Below, in pieces: positions 1,673 to 54,248 of a stretch of DNA of 64,000 bases (positions within the stretch are counted from its first letter, which is position 1; each line of letters begins with the position of its first letter). This stretch comes from Escherichia coli. Lineage in GTDB: Bacteria; Pseudomonadota; Gammaproteobacteria; Enterobacterales; Enterobacteriaceae. The stretch lies in NCBI RefSeq assembly GCF_041886205.1, contig NZ_CP169029.1. One strand, written 5' to 3'. The translations under genes and the position numbers were made by a program. Under the pieces are notes generated by a model, which was not told the origin of the DNA, ran no database searches, and was given only the letters and a program-made list of their open reading frames with translations.

Positions 1673-4600
1673 TTGAGTACCGTGGGCCAGCGCGAACGCG
1701 CCACACAGCAGCGTCTGATTCAGTTTTTTGTTGAAGATTTAGGTTACCGCCATCTGAGTCACCGCACCGGGTACACCGGGAACAGCAACATCGACACTAA
1801 TATACTGAGCGCGTGGCTAAAACGGCGCGGCGTTAATGATACGTTGATCACCCGGGCGTTGCGGCAACTGGATTCCGCCGCCGCTCTGGGCGAAGGCAAA
1901 AAACTCTATTACGCCAATAAAGAGGTCTATCGCCTACTGCGTTACGGCGTGAAAGACAAAGAAGGCGCAGGCGAGCAGAACCAAACCGTGTGGCTGATTG
2001 ACTGGGCCAACCCACAAGCCAATGATTTCGCCATCGCCGATGAGGTGACGGTCAAAGGCGAGTACTGCAAGCGCCCGGATCTGGTGCTGTACGTTAACGG
2101 CATTGCGCTGGGCGTGATTGAACTTAAGCGTTCGTCAGTGCACGTCAGCGAAGGCATCCGGCAGAATCTCGATAATCAAAAGAAAACCTTTATCCGCGAT
2201 TTCTTCACCACTATGCAGTTAGTGATGGCGGGCAACGATACGCAGGGCCTGCGCTACGGCACCATCGAAACCCCGGAAAAATACTATCTGGAGTGGAAAG
2301 AAGATAATCCAGGCGACTATACACATAAACTCGACTTTCATTTAAGTCGTCTGTGTAGCAAATCCAGGCTGTTGGATATCGTCCATAATTACATTGCCTT
2401 TGATGTCGGGGTGAAAAAACTCTGCCGCCATAATCAGTTCTTCGGCGTCGAGGCGGCTAAACAACATATTGCCCGTCGTGAAGGCGGTATTATCTGGCAC
2501 ACACAGGGATCGGGTAAAAGCCTGACGATGGTCTGGCTGGCGAAGTGGATCCGTGAAAATGTGCCAAACTCCCGCGTGTTGATTGTGACTGACCGCACCG
2601 AACTGGATGAACAGATCGAAAGCGTGTTTATGGGCGTGAATGAAGATATTTATCGCACCTCCAGCGGCAACGATCTTATCGCAACGCTCAATCATCCTAA
2701 CCCGTGGCTCATTTGCTCGCTGGTGCATAAATTTGGTCGTCGCAGCGAAGCTGAAGACAATGCAGCTACCGACGCCTTTATCACCGAATTACAGCACTCC
2801 CTGACGAAAACATTCCGCGCCAAAGGCGATCTGTTTGTTTTTGTGGACGAGTGCCACCGCACACAATCCGGCAAGCTGCATAACGCCATGACTGCCATTC
2901 TGCCGGACGCCCTGTTTATCGGTTTTACCGGCACACCGCTGATGAAGAAAGATAAGAAGAAGTCGGTTGAGGTGTTCGGCCCTTATATCCATACCTATAA
3001 ATTTGATGAAGCGGTGGCCGACGGTGTGGTGCTGGATCTGCGCTACGAGGCACGCGATATTGACCAGTATCTGACATCAGAGAAAAAGGTCGATGACTGG
3101 TTTGAAGCCAAGACTCGCGGTTTGTCGAATTTAGCTAGGACCCAGCTTAAGCAAAAGTGGGGATCAATGCAGAAGCTGCTCTCCAGCAAGTCGCGGCTGG
3201 AGCAGATCGTTAACGACATTTTGCTGGATATGGATACCCGTCCACGCCTGATGGACGGGCGCGGCAACGCCATGCTGGTATGCAGCAGTATCTATCAAGC
3301 CTGCAAGGTTTACGAGATGTTCAGCCAGACCGAGCTGGCAGGAAAAGTAGCGATTGTGACCAGCTATCGCCCCGATGCCGCCAGCATCAAAGGCGAAGAA
3401 ACGGGCGAAGGGTTAACGGAGAAACTCTCTAAACACGCCACCTATCGTAAAATGTTGGCTGACTATTTTGAACAAAGTGAAGAGAAGGCCGCCGCACGCA
3501 TTACCGAGTTCGAGCGGGAAGTGAAACAGCGTTTTATTGAAGAGCCGGGGCAAATGCGCCTGCTTATCGTGGTGGATAAGCTGCTGACTGGCTTTGACGC
3601 GCCGTCCGCCACCTATCTCTACATTGATAAAACCATGACCGACCATACGCTGTTTCAGGCGATTTGTCGGGTGAACCGGCTGGACGGTGAGGATAAAGAG
3701 TATGGCTATATTATCGATTATAAAGATCTGTTCCGTTCGCTGGATAAAGCGATTACCGATTACACCACGGGCGCGTTTGATGATTACGATCGGGACGATG
3801 TGGCCGGGTTGCTGAAAGACAGGCTAGAGCAGGCGCAACTGGATCTCGACAGCGCGCTGGAGATGGTTCGCAGCTTATGTGAACCCGTCAAAACCCCGCG
3901 CAGCCTGCAGGACTATCAGCACTATTTTTGCGGTGAATCAGGAGAGAATCAGACTTCGTTAAACGAAAAAGAGGCGCTGCGCCTGACATTTTACCAGTGC
4001 GTCGCCCGTCTGCTACGCGCTTATGCCAACATCGCCAATGAAATGCCGGAAGCAGGCTACACTGCCGAAGAGGTAGAGAGCATTCGCGCCGAAGTCGCTG
4101 AATTCGAAAAACTGCGCTATGAGATTAAGCTGACCAGCGGCGATCTTCTGGATATGAAGCGCTTTGAACCCGCTATGCGTCATTTACTGGATATGTATGT
4201 TCGCGCCGATGATAGCGAAGTGCTGATGGATTTTGAAGAGTTAAGTCTGATTGAACTGATTGTCGAGAAAGGCTTGGCGGCGACCGTCGCCCTGCCGGAT
4301 GATATCCGTAATAATCAGGATGCGATGGCGGAAACCATCGAAAACAACGTGCGCAAAACCATCGTGGATGAAAACCCGGTTAACCCAAAATACTATGGAC
4401 GCATGTCGCAACTGCTGGATGAACTGATTACCCTTCGCCGACAAAATGCGCTCAATTATCAGCAGTATCTGGAACGTATCCGCGATTTGTGTAAACAGGT
4501 CATCCGCCCGGAGCAAACCGCCGGAGCGTGCTACCCTGCCACCATGGATACACAAGCAAAGCGCGCCTTCTATGATAACTTCGGCCACGACGAGGTACTG

Positions 4601-4768
4601 GCGACCCGCATAGATACGACGATTCGCTATACCAAAAGGGCAGAGTGGATTGGCGATCGTTTTAAAGAACGGGAAATTGCCAACGCATTACGTGAAGAGA
4701 CCGCCAGCTATAATATTGATATTGATGAGGTGATAGCGCTTGCCCGTCAGCAGAAGGAATATCACTGA
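1673..4768 (+). CDS. hsdR: Type I restriction endonuclease R subunit (HsdR)
   Basis: 1031 aa; N-terminal PD-(D/E)xK nuclease motif (PDLVLYVNGIALGVIELKRS), Walker A (TQGSGKSLTMVW), DECH box (FVFVDECHRTQSG); TTG start with AAGGAG Shine-Dalgarno 7 nt upstream. Confidence 0.85.
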   Translation: MSTVGQRERATQQRLIQFFVEDLGYRHLSHRTGYTGNSNIDTNILSAWLKRRGVNDTLITRALRQLDSAAALGEGKKLYYANKEVYRLLRYGVKDKEGAGEQNQTVWLIDWANPQANDFAIADEVTVKGEYCKRPDLVLYVNGIALGVIELKRSSVHVSEGIRQNLDNQKKTFIRDFFTTMQLVMAGNDTQGLRYGTIETPEKYYLEWKEDNPGDYTHKLDFHLSRLCSKSRLLDIVHNYIAFDVGVKKLCRHNQFFGVEAAKQHIARREGGIIWHTQGSGKSLTMVWLAKWIRENVPNSRVLIVTDRTELDEQIESVFMGVNEDIYRTSSGNDLIATLNHPNPWLICSLVHKFGRRSEAEDNAATDAFITELQHSLTKTFRAKGDLFVFVDECHRTQSGKLHNAMTAILPDALFIGFTGTPLMKKDKKKSVEVFGPYIHTYKFDEAVADGVVLDLRYEARDIDQYLTSEKKVDDWFEAKTRGLSNLARTQLKQKWGSMQKLLSSKSRLEQIVNDILLDMDTRPRLMDGRGNAMLVCSSIYQACKVYEMFSQTELAGKVAIVTSYRPDAASIKGEETGEGLTEKLSKHATYRKMLADYFEQSEEKAAARITEFEREVKQRFIEEPGQMRLLIVVDKLLTGFDAPSATYLYIDKTMTDHTLFQAICRVNRLDGEDKEYGYIIDYKDLFRSLDKAITDYTTGAFDDYDRDDVAGLLKDRLEQAQLDLDSALEMVRSLCEPVKTPRSLQDYQHYFCGESGENQTSLNEKEALRLTFYQCVARLLRAYANIANEMPEAGYTAEEVESIRAEVAEFEKLRYEIKLTSGDLLDMKRFEPAMRHLLDMYVRADDSEVLMDFEELSLIELIVEKGLAATVALPDDIRNNQDAMAETIENNVRKTIVDENPVNPKYYGRMSQLLDELITLRRQNALNYQQYLERIRDLCKQVIRPEQTAGACYPATMDTQAKRAFYDNFGHDEVLATRIDTTIRYTKRAEWIGDRFKEREIANALREETASYNIDIDEVIALARQQKEYH

Positions 4769-5484
4769 TGCCAATCATGCAAATAGGCTCGTTACACTTG
4801 CTGGTCAACCGTAAGGCGATTAAGAATCTGCATATCAGCGTGCTGCCGCCTGATGGCAAAGTCCGCGTTTCAGCGCCGGAACATATGACGGAGACGGCGA
4901 TTCGTATGGCGGTTGCTTCACGCTTTCGCTGGATCAGAAAACAGCAGCAGGATTTCGCCAGACAGCCTCGTCAATCAGAGAGGGAAATGGTCAGCGGAGA
5001 GTGCCACTATCTTTGGGGCCGAAGATATCGCCTACTTGTGATTGAGCGTCACGGGCGTCACGAAGTAAAAGTTGCGGGAAATAATAAGCTCCAGCTTTAT
5101 GTTCAACCGGGAACCCGTGATGAAAATAAGGCATTGGCGTTAAGTGAATTTTATCGACATGAACTAAAACAGCAGGTGGCTAAGCTTCTACCTGAATGGC
5201 AGGACCGAATCGGTGTTCCCCTAACATTCTGGGGCATCAAAAAGATGAAAACCTTTTGGGGCACCTGTAACACTACAACAAAACGAATCTGGCTCAATCT
5301 GGAGCTAATTAAGAAGCCGCCGGAGTGTCTGGAGTATATTCTGGTGCATGAACTGGTTCATCTTCTGGAACGTCACCATAATGCTCGCTTCCGGTTGCAT
5401 ATGGATCGGTTTATTCCTGACTGGCGTGAGCGTCGGGATTTGTTAAATAATATGCCGTTAGCGTTTGAGGCATGGGAGTATTGA
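4768..5484 (+). CDS. DUF45 / M48-like zinc metallopeptidase (YgjP-like)
   Basis: 238 aa with HExxH motif (ILVHELVHLLERHH); start overlaps hsdR stop, so it is translationally coupled. Confidence 0.7.
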   Translation: MPIMQIGSLHLLVNRKAIKNLHISVLPPDGKVRVSAPEHMTETAIRMAVASRFRWIRKQQQDFARQPRQSEREMVSGECHYLWGRRYRLLVIERHGRHEVKVAGNNKLQLYVQPGTRDENKALALSEFYRHELKQQVAKLLPEWQDRIGVPLTFWGIKKMKTFWGTCNTTTKRIWLNLELIKKPPECLEYILVHELVHLLERHHNARFRLHMDRFIPDWRERRDLLNNMPLAFEAWEY

Positions 5485-6005
5485 TTGAGCCTGTAACTGT
5501 TTTTTGTCCATAAATTAACCTTCATTTGATGCTGGATTGAACATATCAAAATCAGACAATTACACAAATCTATGTACAGGCTCAACTCCTGCCATGGAAC
5601 GTAGTACTCACCAATAAGTAAGCATCAATACGGCGCTCCGTTAACGCTTACTAGCATGGTTATCTCCTTAAAAAATTGAGGCGACAACTATGCTGACGCA
5701 GGGGGGTATTGGGTGATCTCCTTCCATGAAAATACGCAGCTTGATTGCATTAAATTTATTTAATTTGCACTAATTTTGTTTAAGTTACATTACCACACGT
5801 GGGATATTGGAATACAAGCAACGCGAGGAATCAGTAAATATACCAATAATTGTATCACCCCTTTAATATTCATTAAGGTTTCAGGCCCTCCGGCACGATT
5901 CACCTGGCGAATCAATTCACGAGTCGCCCCAGAGTCACCGCCAATAAACATGCGATTCAACTCCCGATTCGATTCTCACTAATCTATTGTTTTATATAAA
6001 GATAG

Positions 6006-6063
6006 TCAGTACTGACTCTGTGACGACTCGCCGATGACTTGCCATAGAGTCATCGGCGAGTCG
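6006..6063. repeat. Two adjacent perfect palindromes (14 bp AGTCAGTACTGACT; 16-bp stem CGACTCGCCGATGACT with 8-nt loop)
   Basis: Read directly in an ORF-free AT-rich spacer downstream of the DUF45 gene. Confidence 0.8.
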
Positions 6064-6273
6064 GATCGGCATAATAAAAATTATCATAACGTAATTCTGA
6101 AATTATAACTTTATGATTTTAAATACCTATCAGCAAAAACTTGGTTTTGCATGGGGTGTGGAGATTTTGAGGTAAGAAGCAGGCTATCGTAAAATAGCCT
6201 GCTGGGATGGATTCAGTAATCACCGAATAAATTGCGGAGCAAAAAAACCGCCAATCAAGAGATGGGTTAGCAA

Positions 6274-6609
6274 TCAATTTTCGTATTTAAATTCAATATT
6301 AATCTTTAAAGCCTCTACATCTACTGTCACTTCACAGCCATGCCAGAATGGTTTTTCCTGAGATTTAAAGTTATCTAGAAAATAATTTCTTAATTCCACA
6401 AGAAAATCAAATAAATCACCGTTTGCTTGTGCCCCTGCCGAAAACCAATCAGTATTGCCAGTATCTGCATTTATATAGTCAAATTCACATTTACAATGAT
6501 CATTTTCAGGAGACAGTTCTGCTCTCATGATCACTTTGGATGCATTTTCAGGCGCAATGGATAGCAATACTGAACCTATATCATTATAAATCTCTTGATC
6601 AGTCCTCAC
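6274..6609 (-). CDS. Hypothetical small protein, immunity-protein-like
   Basis: 111-aa ORF starting with GTG immediately after the stop of the upstream ORF, with GGAGGT Shine-Dalgarno embedded in the upstream gene end; AT-rich. Confidence 0.35.
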   Translation of the reverse strand: MRTDQEIYNDIGSVLLSIAPENASKVIMRAELSPENDHCKCEFDYINADTGNTDWFSAGAQANGDLFDFLVELRNYFLDNFKSQEKPFWHGCEVTVDVEALKINIEFKYEN

Positions 6610-31626: not shown

Positions 31627-31656
31627 AAACTGTACCATCCCCTCTCCCGTTGGGAG
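31627..31656 (-). terminator. Perfect 14-bp-stem palindrome, probable terminator after iolD
   Basis: CCATCCCCTCTCCC-GTT-GGGAGAGGGGATGG; T-rich run follows on the minus strand. Confidence 0.5.
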
Positions 31657-31716
31657 AGGGGATGGGTGAGAGGAAAAAAGAAAAATGAAATGAAAATTTC
31701 GTTACGACAGGAAAAC

Positions 31717-45698: not shown

Positions 45699-46901
45699 TT
45701 ATTTATTCACAATTTGAGACATCACATAATCCGCCCATGCCTGCATCATCGGTACACGCTGCTCCAGTAGATCAGTACGATGATATGCCGCCTCAACCTT
45801 ATTTTTCAGCGTATGAGCGAGCGCCCTTTCCGCCAGATCCCGCGAATACCCCTGTTCACTACACCAGTCCCTGAATGTTGAGCGAAAACCATGTGCCGTG
45901 GCAACTCGCCCCGGAATGTCACTGACGGCTTTCTTTTTACGCAGAAAACTTGTCAACACCATATCGGAAAGGATCTGCTGCTTTCTGGGTGAAGGGAACA
46001 CCAGTTCATCATGCAGGCCACGTATATTTTCCAGAATGTAAATAGCCTGCCGGGATAAAGGAACACGATGCTGTAGCCTGGCTTTCATTCTTTCTGCAGG
46101 TATAGTCCATACCCGCTTATGAAAATCAATTTCAGCCCAGCGCATTCCCCTGGCTTCGCCCGAGCGAGTTGCTGTAAGTATCACCATTAATAACAGTGCG
46201 CGGGTAACATTATAAGGTTCATCACTATACACACTGGTCGCCACAAAAAGCGGTAACTGCCTCCAGGGCATTGCTGGTTGGTGTTCATCACGTCCTCTTG
46301 TCTGCTGAGGAAGCAAATGGTCAACCACATCAACAGGATTTGCCACACAAAAACCGTGCGCCCATCCCCACTGCATAACAACATGAATGCGCTGTTTAAC
46401 CCGGCTTGCCGTTTCTGACAAGGTTAACCAGACTGGACGCAGTGTTTCTGCCACGTCCGCAGCCGTAATCGAATCCAGCGTTTTTGCTCCCAGTTGAGGA
46501 AACGCGTAATTCTCAAGCGTCGATAACCACTGCCTTACATGCTTTGGATTTTCCCATCCTGGAGACAATTCTGCATGTACACGCCTGGCTGCATCGGCAA
46601 ATGTTGGGATAACGACTTTCTCAGATTCAGCCTTTTTAATCTCCAGAGGATCATCACCTGCAGCAAGTTGCTCTCGCATTATCCGGGCAGTACGTGCAGC
46701 TTCAGCAATACTGACCTCTGGGTAAGTTCCCAATCCAGCATTACGTCTTTTTTGTGTCACCGGACTTACATAACGAAAAACCCATTTCCCCCGCCCCTTT
46801 ACTGAAGAAGGATGAAGGGTCAGTCCGGTAATTCCCCCATGGGGCAATGGTTTGTCATCAGGTTTGATATGTCTTGCTTTCGTATCCGTCAATACTGCCA
46901 T
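45699..46901 (-). CDS. int: Tyrosine integrase, P4/CP4-57 type
   Basis: 400 aa; N-terminal MAVLTDTKARHIKPDDKPLPHGG... and C-terminal catalytic region (HGFRSTFRDW...LAH...Y). Confidence 0.85.
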   Translation of the reverse strand: MAVLTDTKARHIKPDDKPLPHGGITGLTLHPSSVKGRGKWVFRYVSPVTQKRRNAGLGTYPEVSIAEAARTARIMREQLAAGDDPLEIKKAESEKVVIPTFADAARRVHAELSPGWENPKHVRQWLSTLENYAFPQLGAKTLDSITAADVAETLRPVWLTLSETASRVKQRIHVVMQWGWAHGFCVANPVDVVDHLLPQQTRGRDEHQPAMPWRQLPLFVATSVYSDEPYNVTRALLLMVILTATRSGEARGMRWAEIDFHKRVWTIPAERMKARLQHRVPLSRQAIYILENIRGLHDELVFPSPRKQQILSDMVLTSFLRKKKAVSDIPGRVATAHGFRSTFRDWCSEQGYSRDLAERALAHTLKNKVEAAYHRTDLLEQRVPMMQAWADYVMSQIVNK

Positions 46902-48805: not shown

Positions 48806-49729
48806 TTAACTGTATGCATGCAGCGTACGTTGGCAAAGTGCCGAACGTACGCAATCCTCTTTACCGAACCGGACGATCCCAACCATTTCATCTTCTTCGA
48901 AACGTTCCAGCGCGTCACTTAATCCGGAGCACACGCCGCGAGGCAAATCGCATTGCGTGATATCACCGTTGACGATAACTGTCACGTTCTCCCCGAGGCG
49001 GGTTAAAAACATTTTCATTTGCGCGGCAGTCACATTCTGCGCCTCGTCAAGAATGACGACTGCATTTTCAAAGGTACGTCCACGCATATAGGCGAAAGGC
49101 GCAATTTCCACCTTCCCTATTTCCGGTCGCAGGCAGTACTGCATAAAGGAAGCCCCTAAGCGCCGGACCAGCACGTCGTAAACCGGGCGAAAATAGGGAG
49201 CAAACTTTTCTGCGATATCTCCAGGTAAGAAGCCAAGATCTTCATCGGCTTGCAGAACTGGACGGGTGACGATAATCCTGTCGACATCCTTATGTATCAG
49301 GGCCTCTGCCGCTTTTGCTGCGCTGATCCAGGTTTTTCCGCACCCGGCTTCGCCCGTGGCGAATATCAGCTGCTTACTCTCAATAGCCTTCAGATAGTGC
49401 AATTGCGCTTCATTACGCGCGAGGATGGGCGAAGTATCGCGACTGTCGCGGGCCATACCAATGGCTTCTACGCCGCTCATTTGCACAAGCGAGGTGACCG
49501 ATTCTTCTTCACGCTGCTTATGGCTGCGCGAATCCCGTCTCAGCACACGTTTTGCCTCGCGACGAGCTTTGATCACTGCTTTTTGTCTTCCCATGGAGAG
49601 CACCTTGAGTTGTTTGTATTCATCACACGCGCCGTTGGCAGCGCGATTATGCGCACGAACATCAGAGGGTTGGCTTCCTTGTAAGCCATAGTTTGCTTTT
49701 GGATAAAATGCCGAAAAACGGCTACGCAC
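48806..49729 (-). CDS. phoH: PhoH (phosphate-starvation-inducible ATPase); start codon uncertain
   Basis: PhoH/YbeZ motifs (GEAGCGKT, VILDEAQN); synteny with efeB. Confidence 0.85.
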   Translation of the reverse strand: MRSRFSAFYPKANYGLQGSQPSDVRAHNRAANGACDEYKQLKVLSMGRQKAVIKARREAKRVLRRDSRSHKQREEESVTSLVQMSGVEAIGMARDSRDTSPILARNEAQLHYLKAIESKQLIFATGEAGCGKTWISAAKAAEALIHKDVDRIIVTRPVLQADEDLGFLPGDIAEKFAPYFRPVYDVLVRRLGASFMQYCLRPEIGKVEIAPFAYMRGRTFENAVVILDEAQNVTAAQMKMFLTRLGENVTVIVNGDITQCDLPRGVCSGLSDALERFEEDEMVGIVRFGKEDCVRSALCQRTLHAYS

Positions 49730-50069: not shown

Positions 50070-50405
50070 TGCATCAGGCATCAGTGCACGATCGCCGGAT
50101 GCGGCGTAAACGCCTTATCCAGCCTACCAAACCCGCACCGATTATAGGCATGATAAGACGCGCAAGCGTCGCATCAGGCATCAGTGCACGATCGCCGGAT
50201 GCGGCGTAAACGCCTTATCCAGCCTACCAAACCCGCACCGATTGTAGGCATGATAAGACGCGCAAGCGTCGCATCAGGCATCAGCGCACGAACGCCGGAT
50301 GCGGCATCAACGCCTTATCCCGCCTACCGAACCCGCACCGATTGTAGGCATGATAAGACGCGCAAGCGTCGCATCAGGCATCAGCGCACGAATGCCTTAT
50401 TCGCC
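50070..50405. repeat. REP/BIME cluster (three tandem units)
   Basis: Repeated GCCGGATGCGGCGTAAACGCCTTATCCAGCCTAC and partner palindromes between efeB and phoH. Confidence 0.75.
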
Positions 50406-53955: not shown

Positions 53956-54248
53956 TGTCCAGACTCAATGCATCAGAGCTTCCATGTAAAACTGATAAGC
54001 GGGTGTATCAAGCAATTTCGTCCATCCGCGATTATCAAATCTAACTTTTTGCCCGGAACATAATAACAGCTCGGGTGTTGGTGGCGTCAAAATCGCTGAA
54101 GCGTTCCCCTAAGGCCGGGACAGCAGGGGGCGGCGGCGATTGGCCGCCCCCTGCGCGCTCCCTGCACCATTCAATTTATATGGCGAGGCACATTAAGGGA
54201 GCGCAACCCGCTGCTGAAGCCAAACAAAACCGCCGCAGGCTAAGTCCC

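Follow-up and report, generated by a model that had tools for sequence, protein, structure and literature searches.

A probable orphan F-type oriT with GANTC-type TraM sites beside contact-dependent inhibition modules on an Escherichia coli chromosome

The anatomy of F-type oriTs is textbook knowledge. An oligonucleotide substrate of the F TraI relaxase has the sequence 5'-TTTGCGTGGGGTGT/GGTGCTTT-3' (PMC2504302; the slash marks the nick here and in the nic cores given below), and sbmC is, according to the literature on F, the TraM site most important for transfer. TraM footprints have been found at inverted repeats around ACAACA (PMC9282650). The crystal structure of the ribbon-helix-helix domain of the pED208 TraM protein revealed that GANTC is contacted by Lys3, Gln5 and Tyr7, a motif shared by the TraM protein of R1; TraM of F (Lys3/Asn5) reads A(G/C)CG(G/C)T (PMC3159463). 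Small plasmids that possess an F-type oriT only are mobilised by F (PMC4743918, PMC9282650), and oriTs have been reported in 9% of E. coli chromosomes, where they were linked to ICEs and IMEs carrying relaxases (Ares-Arroyo, Coluzzi and Rocha 2023, PMC10123127).

Here we analyse a 64-kb stretch of an E. coli chromosome (the window) that contains two closely spaced perfect palindromes. We assign these palindromes, on the basis of sequence comparisons and with a probability of about 0.9, to the TraM-binding site nearest to nic (the counterpart of sbmC in F) in an orphan chromosomal F-type oriT. Chromosomal oriTs of E. coli and the anatomy of F-type oriTs are already known; apparently new are the allele, which is unsampled in the databases that we searched, and its location. 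As in the cases compiled previously (PMC10123127), an oriT homologue resides in a chromosome; unlike them, the locus lacks a relaxase gene in the window, and its neighbour is an array of toxin/immunity genes of contact-dependent inhibition (CDI).

Homology to F-type oriT regions and the nic core

When the interval 5890-6172 was compared by BLAST with the plasmids in PLSDB, 2726 plasmid records matched, 2003 of which are conjugative and of the MOBF/MPF_F type. The majority of the matches, to approximately 2000 conjugative IncF plasmids, covers positions 6105-6169 at 80-86% identity. Some matches span 5988-6169 at 68-71%, and the same range of identity (68-71%), over 180-290 bp, connects the locus to the oriT regions of both IncF plasmids and small ColRNAI plasmids. 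In F and five other IncF plasmids (6 of 6 examined), the match falls between traM and the SLT gene (gene X); hence, the matched interval is an oriT. In these plasmids, the minus-strand traM is found on the left and the SLT gene on the right, so that the orientation is the same as in the window. We therefore delimit, by plasmid oriT homology, an F-like (MOBF12-type) oriT at 5890-6180, with the plus strand as the predicted nicked and transferred strand. It is part of a module on the plus strand (5738-6180) that megablast finds to be shared with other E. coli chromosomes; the left portion of this module (5738-5890) has neither a plasmid homologue nor a remnant of traM.

A nic core, TTTTGCATGGGGTGT/GGAG, is present at 6146-6163 on the plus strand and matches the substrate of F TraI; positions 6146-6169 read TTTTGCATGGGGTGTGGAGATTTT. 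Relative to the core recognized by F-type TraI, 5'-GCGTGGGGTGT/GG, the window (6148-6161) has GCATGGGGTGT/GG and thus a single difference, located 9 nt before the nick. Chromosomal copies of the type present in strains C11 and GXU carry GCGTGGGGTGTGG, which is identical to F. The motif TGGGGTGTGG is invariant in all four sequences of one alignment and is carried by most of the oriTs compared. The nick is consequently predicted to fall between T6159 and G6160 on the plus strand, 96 nt to the right of the palindromes and beyond the coordinates to which the first-pass annotation of this DNA had been confined.

Between the palindromes and the nic core lies an A+T-rich stretch (6064-6145), in which we place, by position only, the predicted TraY (sbyA/C) and IHF-A region, using the F oriT map given in PMC4743918 and in a relaxosome preprint. 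The stretch has the same length as its counterparts in F-like oriTs, to which it aligns without gaps, and it contains the conserved blocks TGATTTTAAATAC and ATCAGCAAAAACTTG; no clean IHF consensus was seen in it. The locus shares with F the order and orientation of its elements (TraM sites, A+T-rich stretch assigned to TraY/IHF, nic) and a nearly identical nic core. It differs from F in that the repeat sequences are unrelated, the window having pentamers of the GANTC type and F having non-GANTC motifs, and in that the F oriT is flanked by traM and gene X, both of which are missing from the window.

Relaxase-less small plasmids (pOriT; pEC156, pSe-Kan/pKPN2 and Klebsiella ColRNAI plasmids of 3.5-4.7 kb) resemble the locus: they, too, have an F-type oriT and lack tra genes in cis. 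Its closest full-length relatives are the Klebsiella ColRNAI plasmids, with 68-70% identity over 278 bp, pentamers that are likewise GAGTC/GACTC and an identical offset of 157 nt. In contrast to the chromosomal oriT studied here, these plasmids are multicopy, are transferred whole and carry a different allele.

Phased pentamers in the palindromes and the TraM alleles to which they correspond

The first palindrome, AGTCAGTACTGACT, is a perfect palindrome of 14 bp that occupies positions 6004-6017; the first-pass annotation had recognized it and had placed its start two bases too late, at 6006. It is followed by a perfect inverted repeat of 16 bp, CGACTCGCCGATGACT (6024-6039) and AGTCATCGGCGAGTCG (6048-6063), with a loop of 8 nt, which we found as previously described. 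This stem is the longest perfect inverted repeat of the 64-kb window, and 10 shuffles yielded stems of at most 10 bp. Seven 14-bp palindromes are present in the window and about 3.9 are expected, so AGTCAGTACTGACT alone is unremarkable; it is significant only within the phased array of pentamers described below. When 2-3 mismatches were allowed, no second copy of either palindrome was detected in the window.

The two palindromes resolve into six pentamers with an exact spacing of 11 bp: TAGTC (6003) and GACTC (6014) in the first palindrome (6003-6017 including pentamer 1), and GACTC (6025), GACTT (6036), GAGTC (6047) and GAGTC (6058) in the 16-bp inverted repeat (6024-6063), the positional equivalent of the sbmC inverted repeat of F. 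Pentamers 1 and 4 each deviate from GANTC by one base. Farther upstream, a cluster of seven exact GANTC motifs (5897-5975; starts at 5897, 5909, 5921, 5932, 5954, 5966 and 5971) is predicted from its sequence to be the equivalent of sbmA/sbmB; the offsets of these motifs from nic agree within 1-2 bp with those of the GANTC sites in p1_025157, a plasmid of the R1 type. Altogether, 11 exact GANTC motifs fall into 5897-6062 (Poisson P ~5e-12 for 11 motifs in 176 bp), compared with at most four elsewhere in the window.

To place these motifs among their relatives, we aligned 13 F-like oriTs at their nic sites, allowing no gaps. The second arm of the repeat ends 96 nt from nic in the window, 98 nt in F, 98 nt in the R1-type oriT, 95 nt in the Klebsiella small plasmids and 96 nt in the metagenomic contig L042; an R100-like allele has a repeat of 10 bp that ends 94 nt from nic. 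The 13-bp inverted repeat of F, built around ttgttgt (ACAACA on the other strand), occupies the same position as the repeat of the window. Since F, R1-type and Klebsiella-type oriTs all have perfect repeats of 13-19 bp whose ends lie 95-98 nt from nic, the length of the stem, which had been judged unusual at first sight, is not so: very long perfect palindromes, the apparent oddity of this DNA, belong to the normal anatomy of F-type oriTs.

The sequence of the repeats follows the type of TraM encoded next to them. GANTC arrays accompany TraM proteins beginning with MAKIQVY (p1_025157 and E. albertii p1) or MPRVQVY (metagenomic L042 and L047), ACCGC-type repeats accompany MAKVNLY (F), and GGGTC/GACCC repeats accompany MARVNLY; for all of these TraM types, the repeats stand at the same distances from nic. 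The allele comparison therefore provides a compact natural data set that ties residues 3, 5 and 7 of TraM to DNA motifs. With the Gln5/Tyr7-type plasmids (p1_025157, E. albertii p1 and L042), the window has in common GANTC arrays at the same nic offsets, and with R1 and pED208 (structure 3ON0, pED208 TraM with sbmA) it shares repeated GANTC motifs of the kind read by Lys3/Gln5/Tyr7. The R1-type plasmid is nevertheless only ~71% identical, the central base of the sbmC pentamers in the window is G or C (GAGTC/GACTC) rather than A or T as in R1 and pED208, and the arrangement departs from that of pED208 sbmA, where alternate motifs lie 12 bp apart and two tetramers, staggered and on opposite faces, bind them, as opposed to six motifs at 11 bp on one face in the window.

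Conservation is concentrated in the pentamers. Among three diverged GANTC alleles, 21 of the 24 G/A/T/C positions of the pentamers are invariant, versus 9 of 36 N and spacer positions (Fisher 3e-6), and the two substitutions that distinguish chromosomal variants in the repeat stretch both fall outside of the pentamers. TAGTCAGTAC, which forms the left half of the first palindrome, is kept even in F and lies 156 nt from nic in both sequences; it may serve another factor, for instance as an IHF-B region, and hence not be TraM-specific. Collectively, these comparisons favour protein binding as the better half of the original guess (a protein-binding or recombination site), with homology to TraM sites pointing to the protein; a recombination site in the usual sense does not fit them.

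Two observations on related plasmids emerged from these comparisons. The metagenome contigs L042 (1442-2687) and L047 represent an F-like conjugative plasmid whose TraM starts with MPRVQVY (Arg3/Gln5/Tyr7) and whose oriT combines GACTC/GAGTC pentamers with a perfect inverted repeat of 19 bp that ends at a distance of 96 nt from nic; this TraM/sbm allele is absent among the PLSDB matches. Moreover, some plasmids with a Klebsiella-type oriT carry an R100-like nic core, GCGTAGTGTGTGG, and their siblings the F-like GCGTGGGGTGTGG, with the same array of TraM sites (comparison of L028, a K. pneumoniae plasmid of 3541 bp, with L029, E. coli pEC29-5), which suggests that relaxase specificity and TraM specificity have been exchanged independently of each other.

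A probable orphan oriT next to CDI modules: setting, distribution and possible function

Positions 5480-6167 of the window, which is E. coli chromosome, are 100% identical to strain ZYB62. The left flank of the oriT contains a type I restriction-modification operon that ends with hsdR (1673-4768, plus strand) and the gene of an M48/YgjP peptidase (4768-5484, plus strand). A darT/darG toxin-antitoxin pair is nested in this operon (51-1654, with 1673-5484 following), darG being a macro-domain ORF at 575-1654 according to the annotation of the near-identical ZYB62, whose gene order is hsdM-hsdS-darT-darG-hsdR-M48 peptidase. A fragment of an IS66-family element (approximately 5584-5707) separates the M48 gene from the oriT module; within it, at 5617-5652, two ends of the GTAAGC type, AGTAAGCATCAA and TTAACGCTTACT, face each other. 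The right flank is occupied by minus-strand elements: a YezG-like immunity gene (cdiI, 6274-6609) comes first, then a fragment of a toxin tip, an Imm63 gene and an IS66 element. In related strains, these right-hand genes are annotated as orphan cdiA-CT/cdiI modules of a CDI locus, and in all eight chromosomal contexts examined the oriT is located directly 3' of a cdiA-CT/cdiI module with its leading end facing cdiI. As noted in the first-pass annotation, the palindromes lie in an ORF-free spacer (5485-6273, no ORF of more than 70 aa; an ORF of 68 aa at 5776-5982 has no Pfam match) and at a junction, a mosaic boundary between the hsd/darTG module and the toxin/immunity array.

The surroundings form a large, IS-riddled island (approximately 11000-47000, annotated via ZYB62), inside which the oriT was placed by this annotation and whose boundary is marked by a tyrosine integrase gene beside ycdU (45699-46901). 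Its cargo includes a catabolic operon for myo-inositol (iol) and uhpC, and P4-like genes (YfjI-family, inovirus Gp2-like and AlpA-like HTH) are found there as well. Rfam matches above the gathering score were Ysr251 (an antisense sRNA family) and two tandem copies of naRNA4 (a REP-derived nucleoid-associated RNA), at 48811-49004 and 50147-50324.

Searches with TraM, TraY and SLT proteins (tblastn) gave no match in the window, nor did they in the five related chromosomal loci that were searched, and the oriT is therefore an orphan and not part of a plasmid transfer region. Neither a relaxase gene nor a mating-pair gene was found in the 64-kb window by tblastn or in the ZYB62 annotation. Instead of heading a tra operon between traM and gene X, the oriT is flanked by the IS66 fragment with the hsd/M48 genes on the left and by cdiI on the right. 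The idea that a traM remnant persists to the left of the oriT was rejected, as tblastn finds none. Homology on this side begins at 5707 with strain M8 and at 5738 with C11 and GXU. In strains M8, C4 and PEC240, a minus-strand ORF of 36 aa (MKGDHPITG...) and then a predicted membrane protein of 78 aa (C4: L074, 4663-5000) take the place that traM has in plasmids; neither is TraM-like, and the window (5707-5750) keeps the first ~7 codons of the former. The left side of the oriT in C11 (L008, 2376-8420) and GXU (L002, 379-6432) adjoins a module of ~6 kb that encodes an HTH protein, a primase-like protein of 1031 aa with a CHC2 zinc finger, a XerC-like tyrosine recombinase and DinJ-RelE. This module sits between cdiA/cdiI and more orphan modules and is a candidate for an integrative mobilisable element that uses this oriT.

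Near-identical copies of 5738-6180 were recovered by megablast from 21 of 5426 complete E. coli genomes, in 22 places, all of them chromosomal (median, one place per genome). Fourteen of the 21 copies are full-length (94.7-100% identity) and seven are truncated on the left, by IS66-family elements in both truncated copies examined. The nic core, the six sbmC pentamers and their spacing are intact in all 14 full-length copies; the sbmA/B-like part varies among copies, and its variation includes a 12-bp deletion. In ZYB62 (L006, 9430-12000), which represents the same locus, the IS66-like element ISEc23 is inserted 8 bp 3' of the predicted nic (window 6167), and this insertion would part the nick site from the DNA led into a recipient. 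A junction made by a relaxase at nic had been considered for this breakpoint and was rejected, as the break at 6167 is the ISEc23 insertion and other strains break at ~6170-6180.

PLSDB holds no plasmid with more than ~71% identity to the locus. A degenerate sbmC pattern had no enterobacterial match in the GTDB representative genomes; the pattern GACTC-N6-GACT-N7-GAGTC-N6-GAGTC returned 17 sites, in Bacteroidales MAGs, Rhodobacterales, Burkholderia and other unrelated taxa; nearly all of them were matched on both strands and are therefore full palindromes. The six-pentamer pattern retrieved three window-type copies from metagenomes, none with traM, and the same scan recovered approximately 30 copies of the Klebsiella small-plasmid type and another GAGTC-type allele in a true traM-oriT-SLT context. 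Since no allele-matched plasmid with traM is present in PLSDB, the GTDB representatives or the metagenomes, the parent plasmid remains unsampled.

Beyond homology, site geometry and motif conservation, which can be read from the alignments, the mechanism that we infer is carried over from F, R1 and pED208. TraM of the Gln5/Tyr7 type, which reads GANTC, would bind as tetramers to the six pentamers, which the 11-bp spacing would place on one face of the helix, and the two 16-bp arms would serve as two identical half-sites in inverted orientation. TraY and IHF would bend the A+T-rich 96 bp to the right, an F-type TraI would cut the plus strand between T6159 and G6160 and remain on the 5' end, and TraM would couple the relaxosome to TraD. 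The plus strand would then leave in the 5' to 3' direction, so that the DNA to the right of 6160 (cdiI, cdiA-CT, IS elements, the iol operon and onward) would enter the recipient first. All of the proteins would have to be provided in trans by a co-resident F-like plasmid.

We consider the chances to be even that the chromosomal oriT is still mobilisable in trans; its use would give Hfr-like partial transfer. That small plasmids with nothing but an oriT are mobilised by F demonstrates that an orphan oriT can in principle work. The main alternative is that the locus is a relic, with TraM sites kept by descent, and thus unused, inert debris from a past integration of a plasmid or a CDI locus, and this has a good, if not quite even, chance of being correct. 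The absence of tra genes in cis, the failure to find a cognate plasmid in the databases searched, the truncation of 7 of the 21 copies (by IS66-family elements in the two examined), the position of ISEc23 in ZYB62 8 bp 3' of nic and the variability of the sbmA/B-like part, including the 12-bp deletion, all fit a relic; the left-truncated copies and the ZYB62 insertion show that the site is dispensable. Weighing against this interpretation are the integrity of the nic core, of the six sbmC pentamers and of their spacing in 14 of 14 full-length copies, the avoidance of the pentamers by substitutions in the sbmC stretch, and the fact that an oriT needs nothing in cis (PMC4743918, PMC9282650).

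The consistent placement 3' of cdiA-CT/cdiI raises the idea that the oriT is kept to serve the CDI locus, as a dedicated route by which CDI toxin/immunity modules are spread or swapped and the island undergoes Hfr-like transfer, a proposition that we regard as unlikely. Were an F-like plasmid to act on the oriT in trans, a recipient would first receive the immunity gene and the DNA encoding the toxin tip, and the transferred strand would be the template for cdiI, as is the case for the leading-region genes of plasmids. A full-text literature search yielded no paper linking CDI loci with a neighbouring oriT; in the EC93 paper, plasmid-borne cdi loci are noted, and its plasmid is said to lack an oriT. 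This placement is the one point that we would commend to the attention of specialists, be the oriT functional or a hitch-hiking remnant. The interest of the locus lies in its location, with a complete-looking orphan oriT beside CDI modules and a defence island (type I restriction-modification with darTG): should an F-like plasmid residing in the cell be able to act on this oriT, genes for competition and defence could be mobilised from the chromosome in an Hfr-like manner without integration of the plasmid. Chromosomal oriTs without a relaxase are under-catalogued.

Dyad symmetry and other readings of the palindromes

The symmetry of the repeat raises the question of whether a DNA hairpin or cruciform, formed by the transferred single strand or by supercoiled duplex, acts as the functional unit in place of a row of pentamers in the duplex. 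A long perfect repeat recurs at the same place in every allele with differing sequences (16 bp in the window, 19 in the Klebsiella type, 19 in L042, 15 in the R1-type and 13 in F), the spacers vary among alleles and are yet self-complementary within each, and as single-stranded DNA the palindrome region is predicted to fold strongly (-23.6 kcal/mol, z = -6.4). Despite these features, we give the hairpin a slim chance of being the functional unit. The register of the repeat is shifted in the Klebsiella allele, which has pentamer 4 in the loop and retains 11 of 16 pairs in the register of the window; the GXU/C11 variant has an uncompensated mismatch in the stem; the repeat of the R100-like allele comprises just 10 bp; and the published TraM footprints were obtained with duplex DNA. 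Two identical TraM half-sites in inverted orientation would, moreover, yield the same symmetry. An Rfam search with the hairpin returned sub-threshold miRNA noise only.

Judged from these alleles, dyad symmetry at sbmC is itself maintained beyond the recognised pentamers, because each allele has its own long perfect repeat with self-complementary spacers; recognition of pentamers alone leaves this self-complementarity of the spacers unexplained. Its simplest reading is that two identical TraM half-sites (pentamer-spacer-pentamer) are arranged as an inverted pair, which fits the published footprints flanking the sbmC centre. We retain TraM binding to duplex pentamers as the more probable reading.

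A REP-like repeat, or a site for site-specific recombination (Xer/dif-like or att) at the island junction, is very improbable. The position at a mosaic junction, the resemblance of 6064-6091 to dif (18 of 28 positions, the best match) and the XerC-like recombinase gene ~4-5 kb to the left in C11 and GXU could be cited for it. The dif-like stretch, however, lies within the interval aligned to the TraY/IHF region and is not conserved in the Klebsiella allele. A REP-like element scattered through the genome was the finding that, according to the first-pass annotation, would have refuted its reading; the window contains a single copy, and each of the 21 genomes has at most one near-identical copy, except for one genome with a second place. 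The breakpoints of the strain flanks (5707, 5738 and ~6170) do not coincide with the palindromes. A cer/Xer site, suggested by matches to small ColE1-type Klebsiella plasmids and by the resemblance of 6064-6091 to dif, was rejected in view of the nic core and because the matches in IncF plasmids lie between traM and the SLT gene, and on the same grounds we dropped a CcrM-type methylation cluster (raised by the GANTC enrichment) and an integron attC site (raised by the array of small ORFs).

Finally, an intrinsic transcription terminator for the flanking convergent genes has next to no chance of being the correct reading, even though a strong G+C-rich hairpin does stand between the plus-strand hsd/M48 genes and the minus-strand immunity genes, because the 16-bp stem is followed by no T-run on either strand, a terminator scan was silent in this intergenic region (its three hits, at 5320-5436, lie within the M48 gene), a separate repeat is nearer to the 3' end of cdiI, and the whole element is homologous to plasmid oriT DNA; the doubt expressed in the first-pass annotation that this was a simple terminator was well founded.

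The separate repeat just mentioned is a perfect inverted repeat of 10 bp, AGCAGGCTAT and ATAGCCTGCT, at 6178-6203, located 3' of the YezG-like gene and 18 nt past the predicted nick, roughly where F has its GGTGGT...ACCACC repeat. It is possibly the terminator of the YezG-like gene, with no T-run after it. Other long perfect inverted repeats of the window are found at 31635-31665 (14-bp stem, CCATCCCCTCTCCC and GGGAGAGGGGATGG) and at 54123-54154 (12-bp stem, GCAGGGGGCGGC and GCCGCCCCCTGC); these are probably terminators or REP-type elements.
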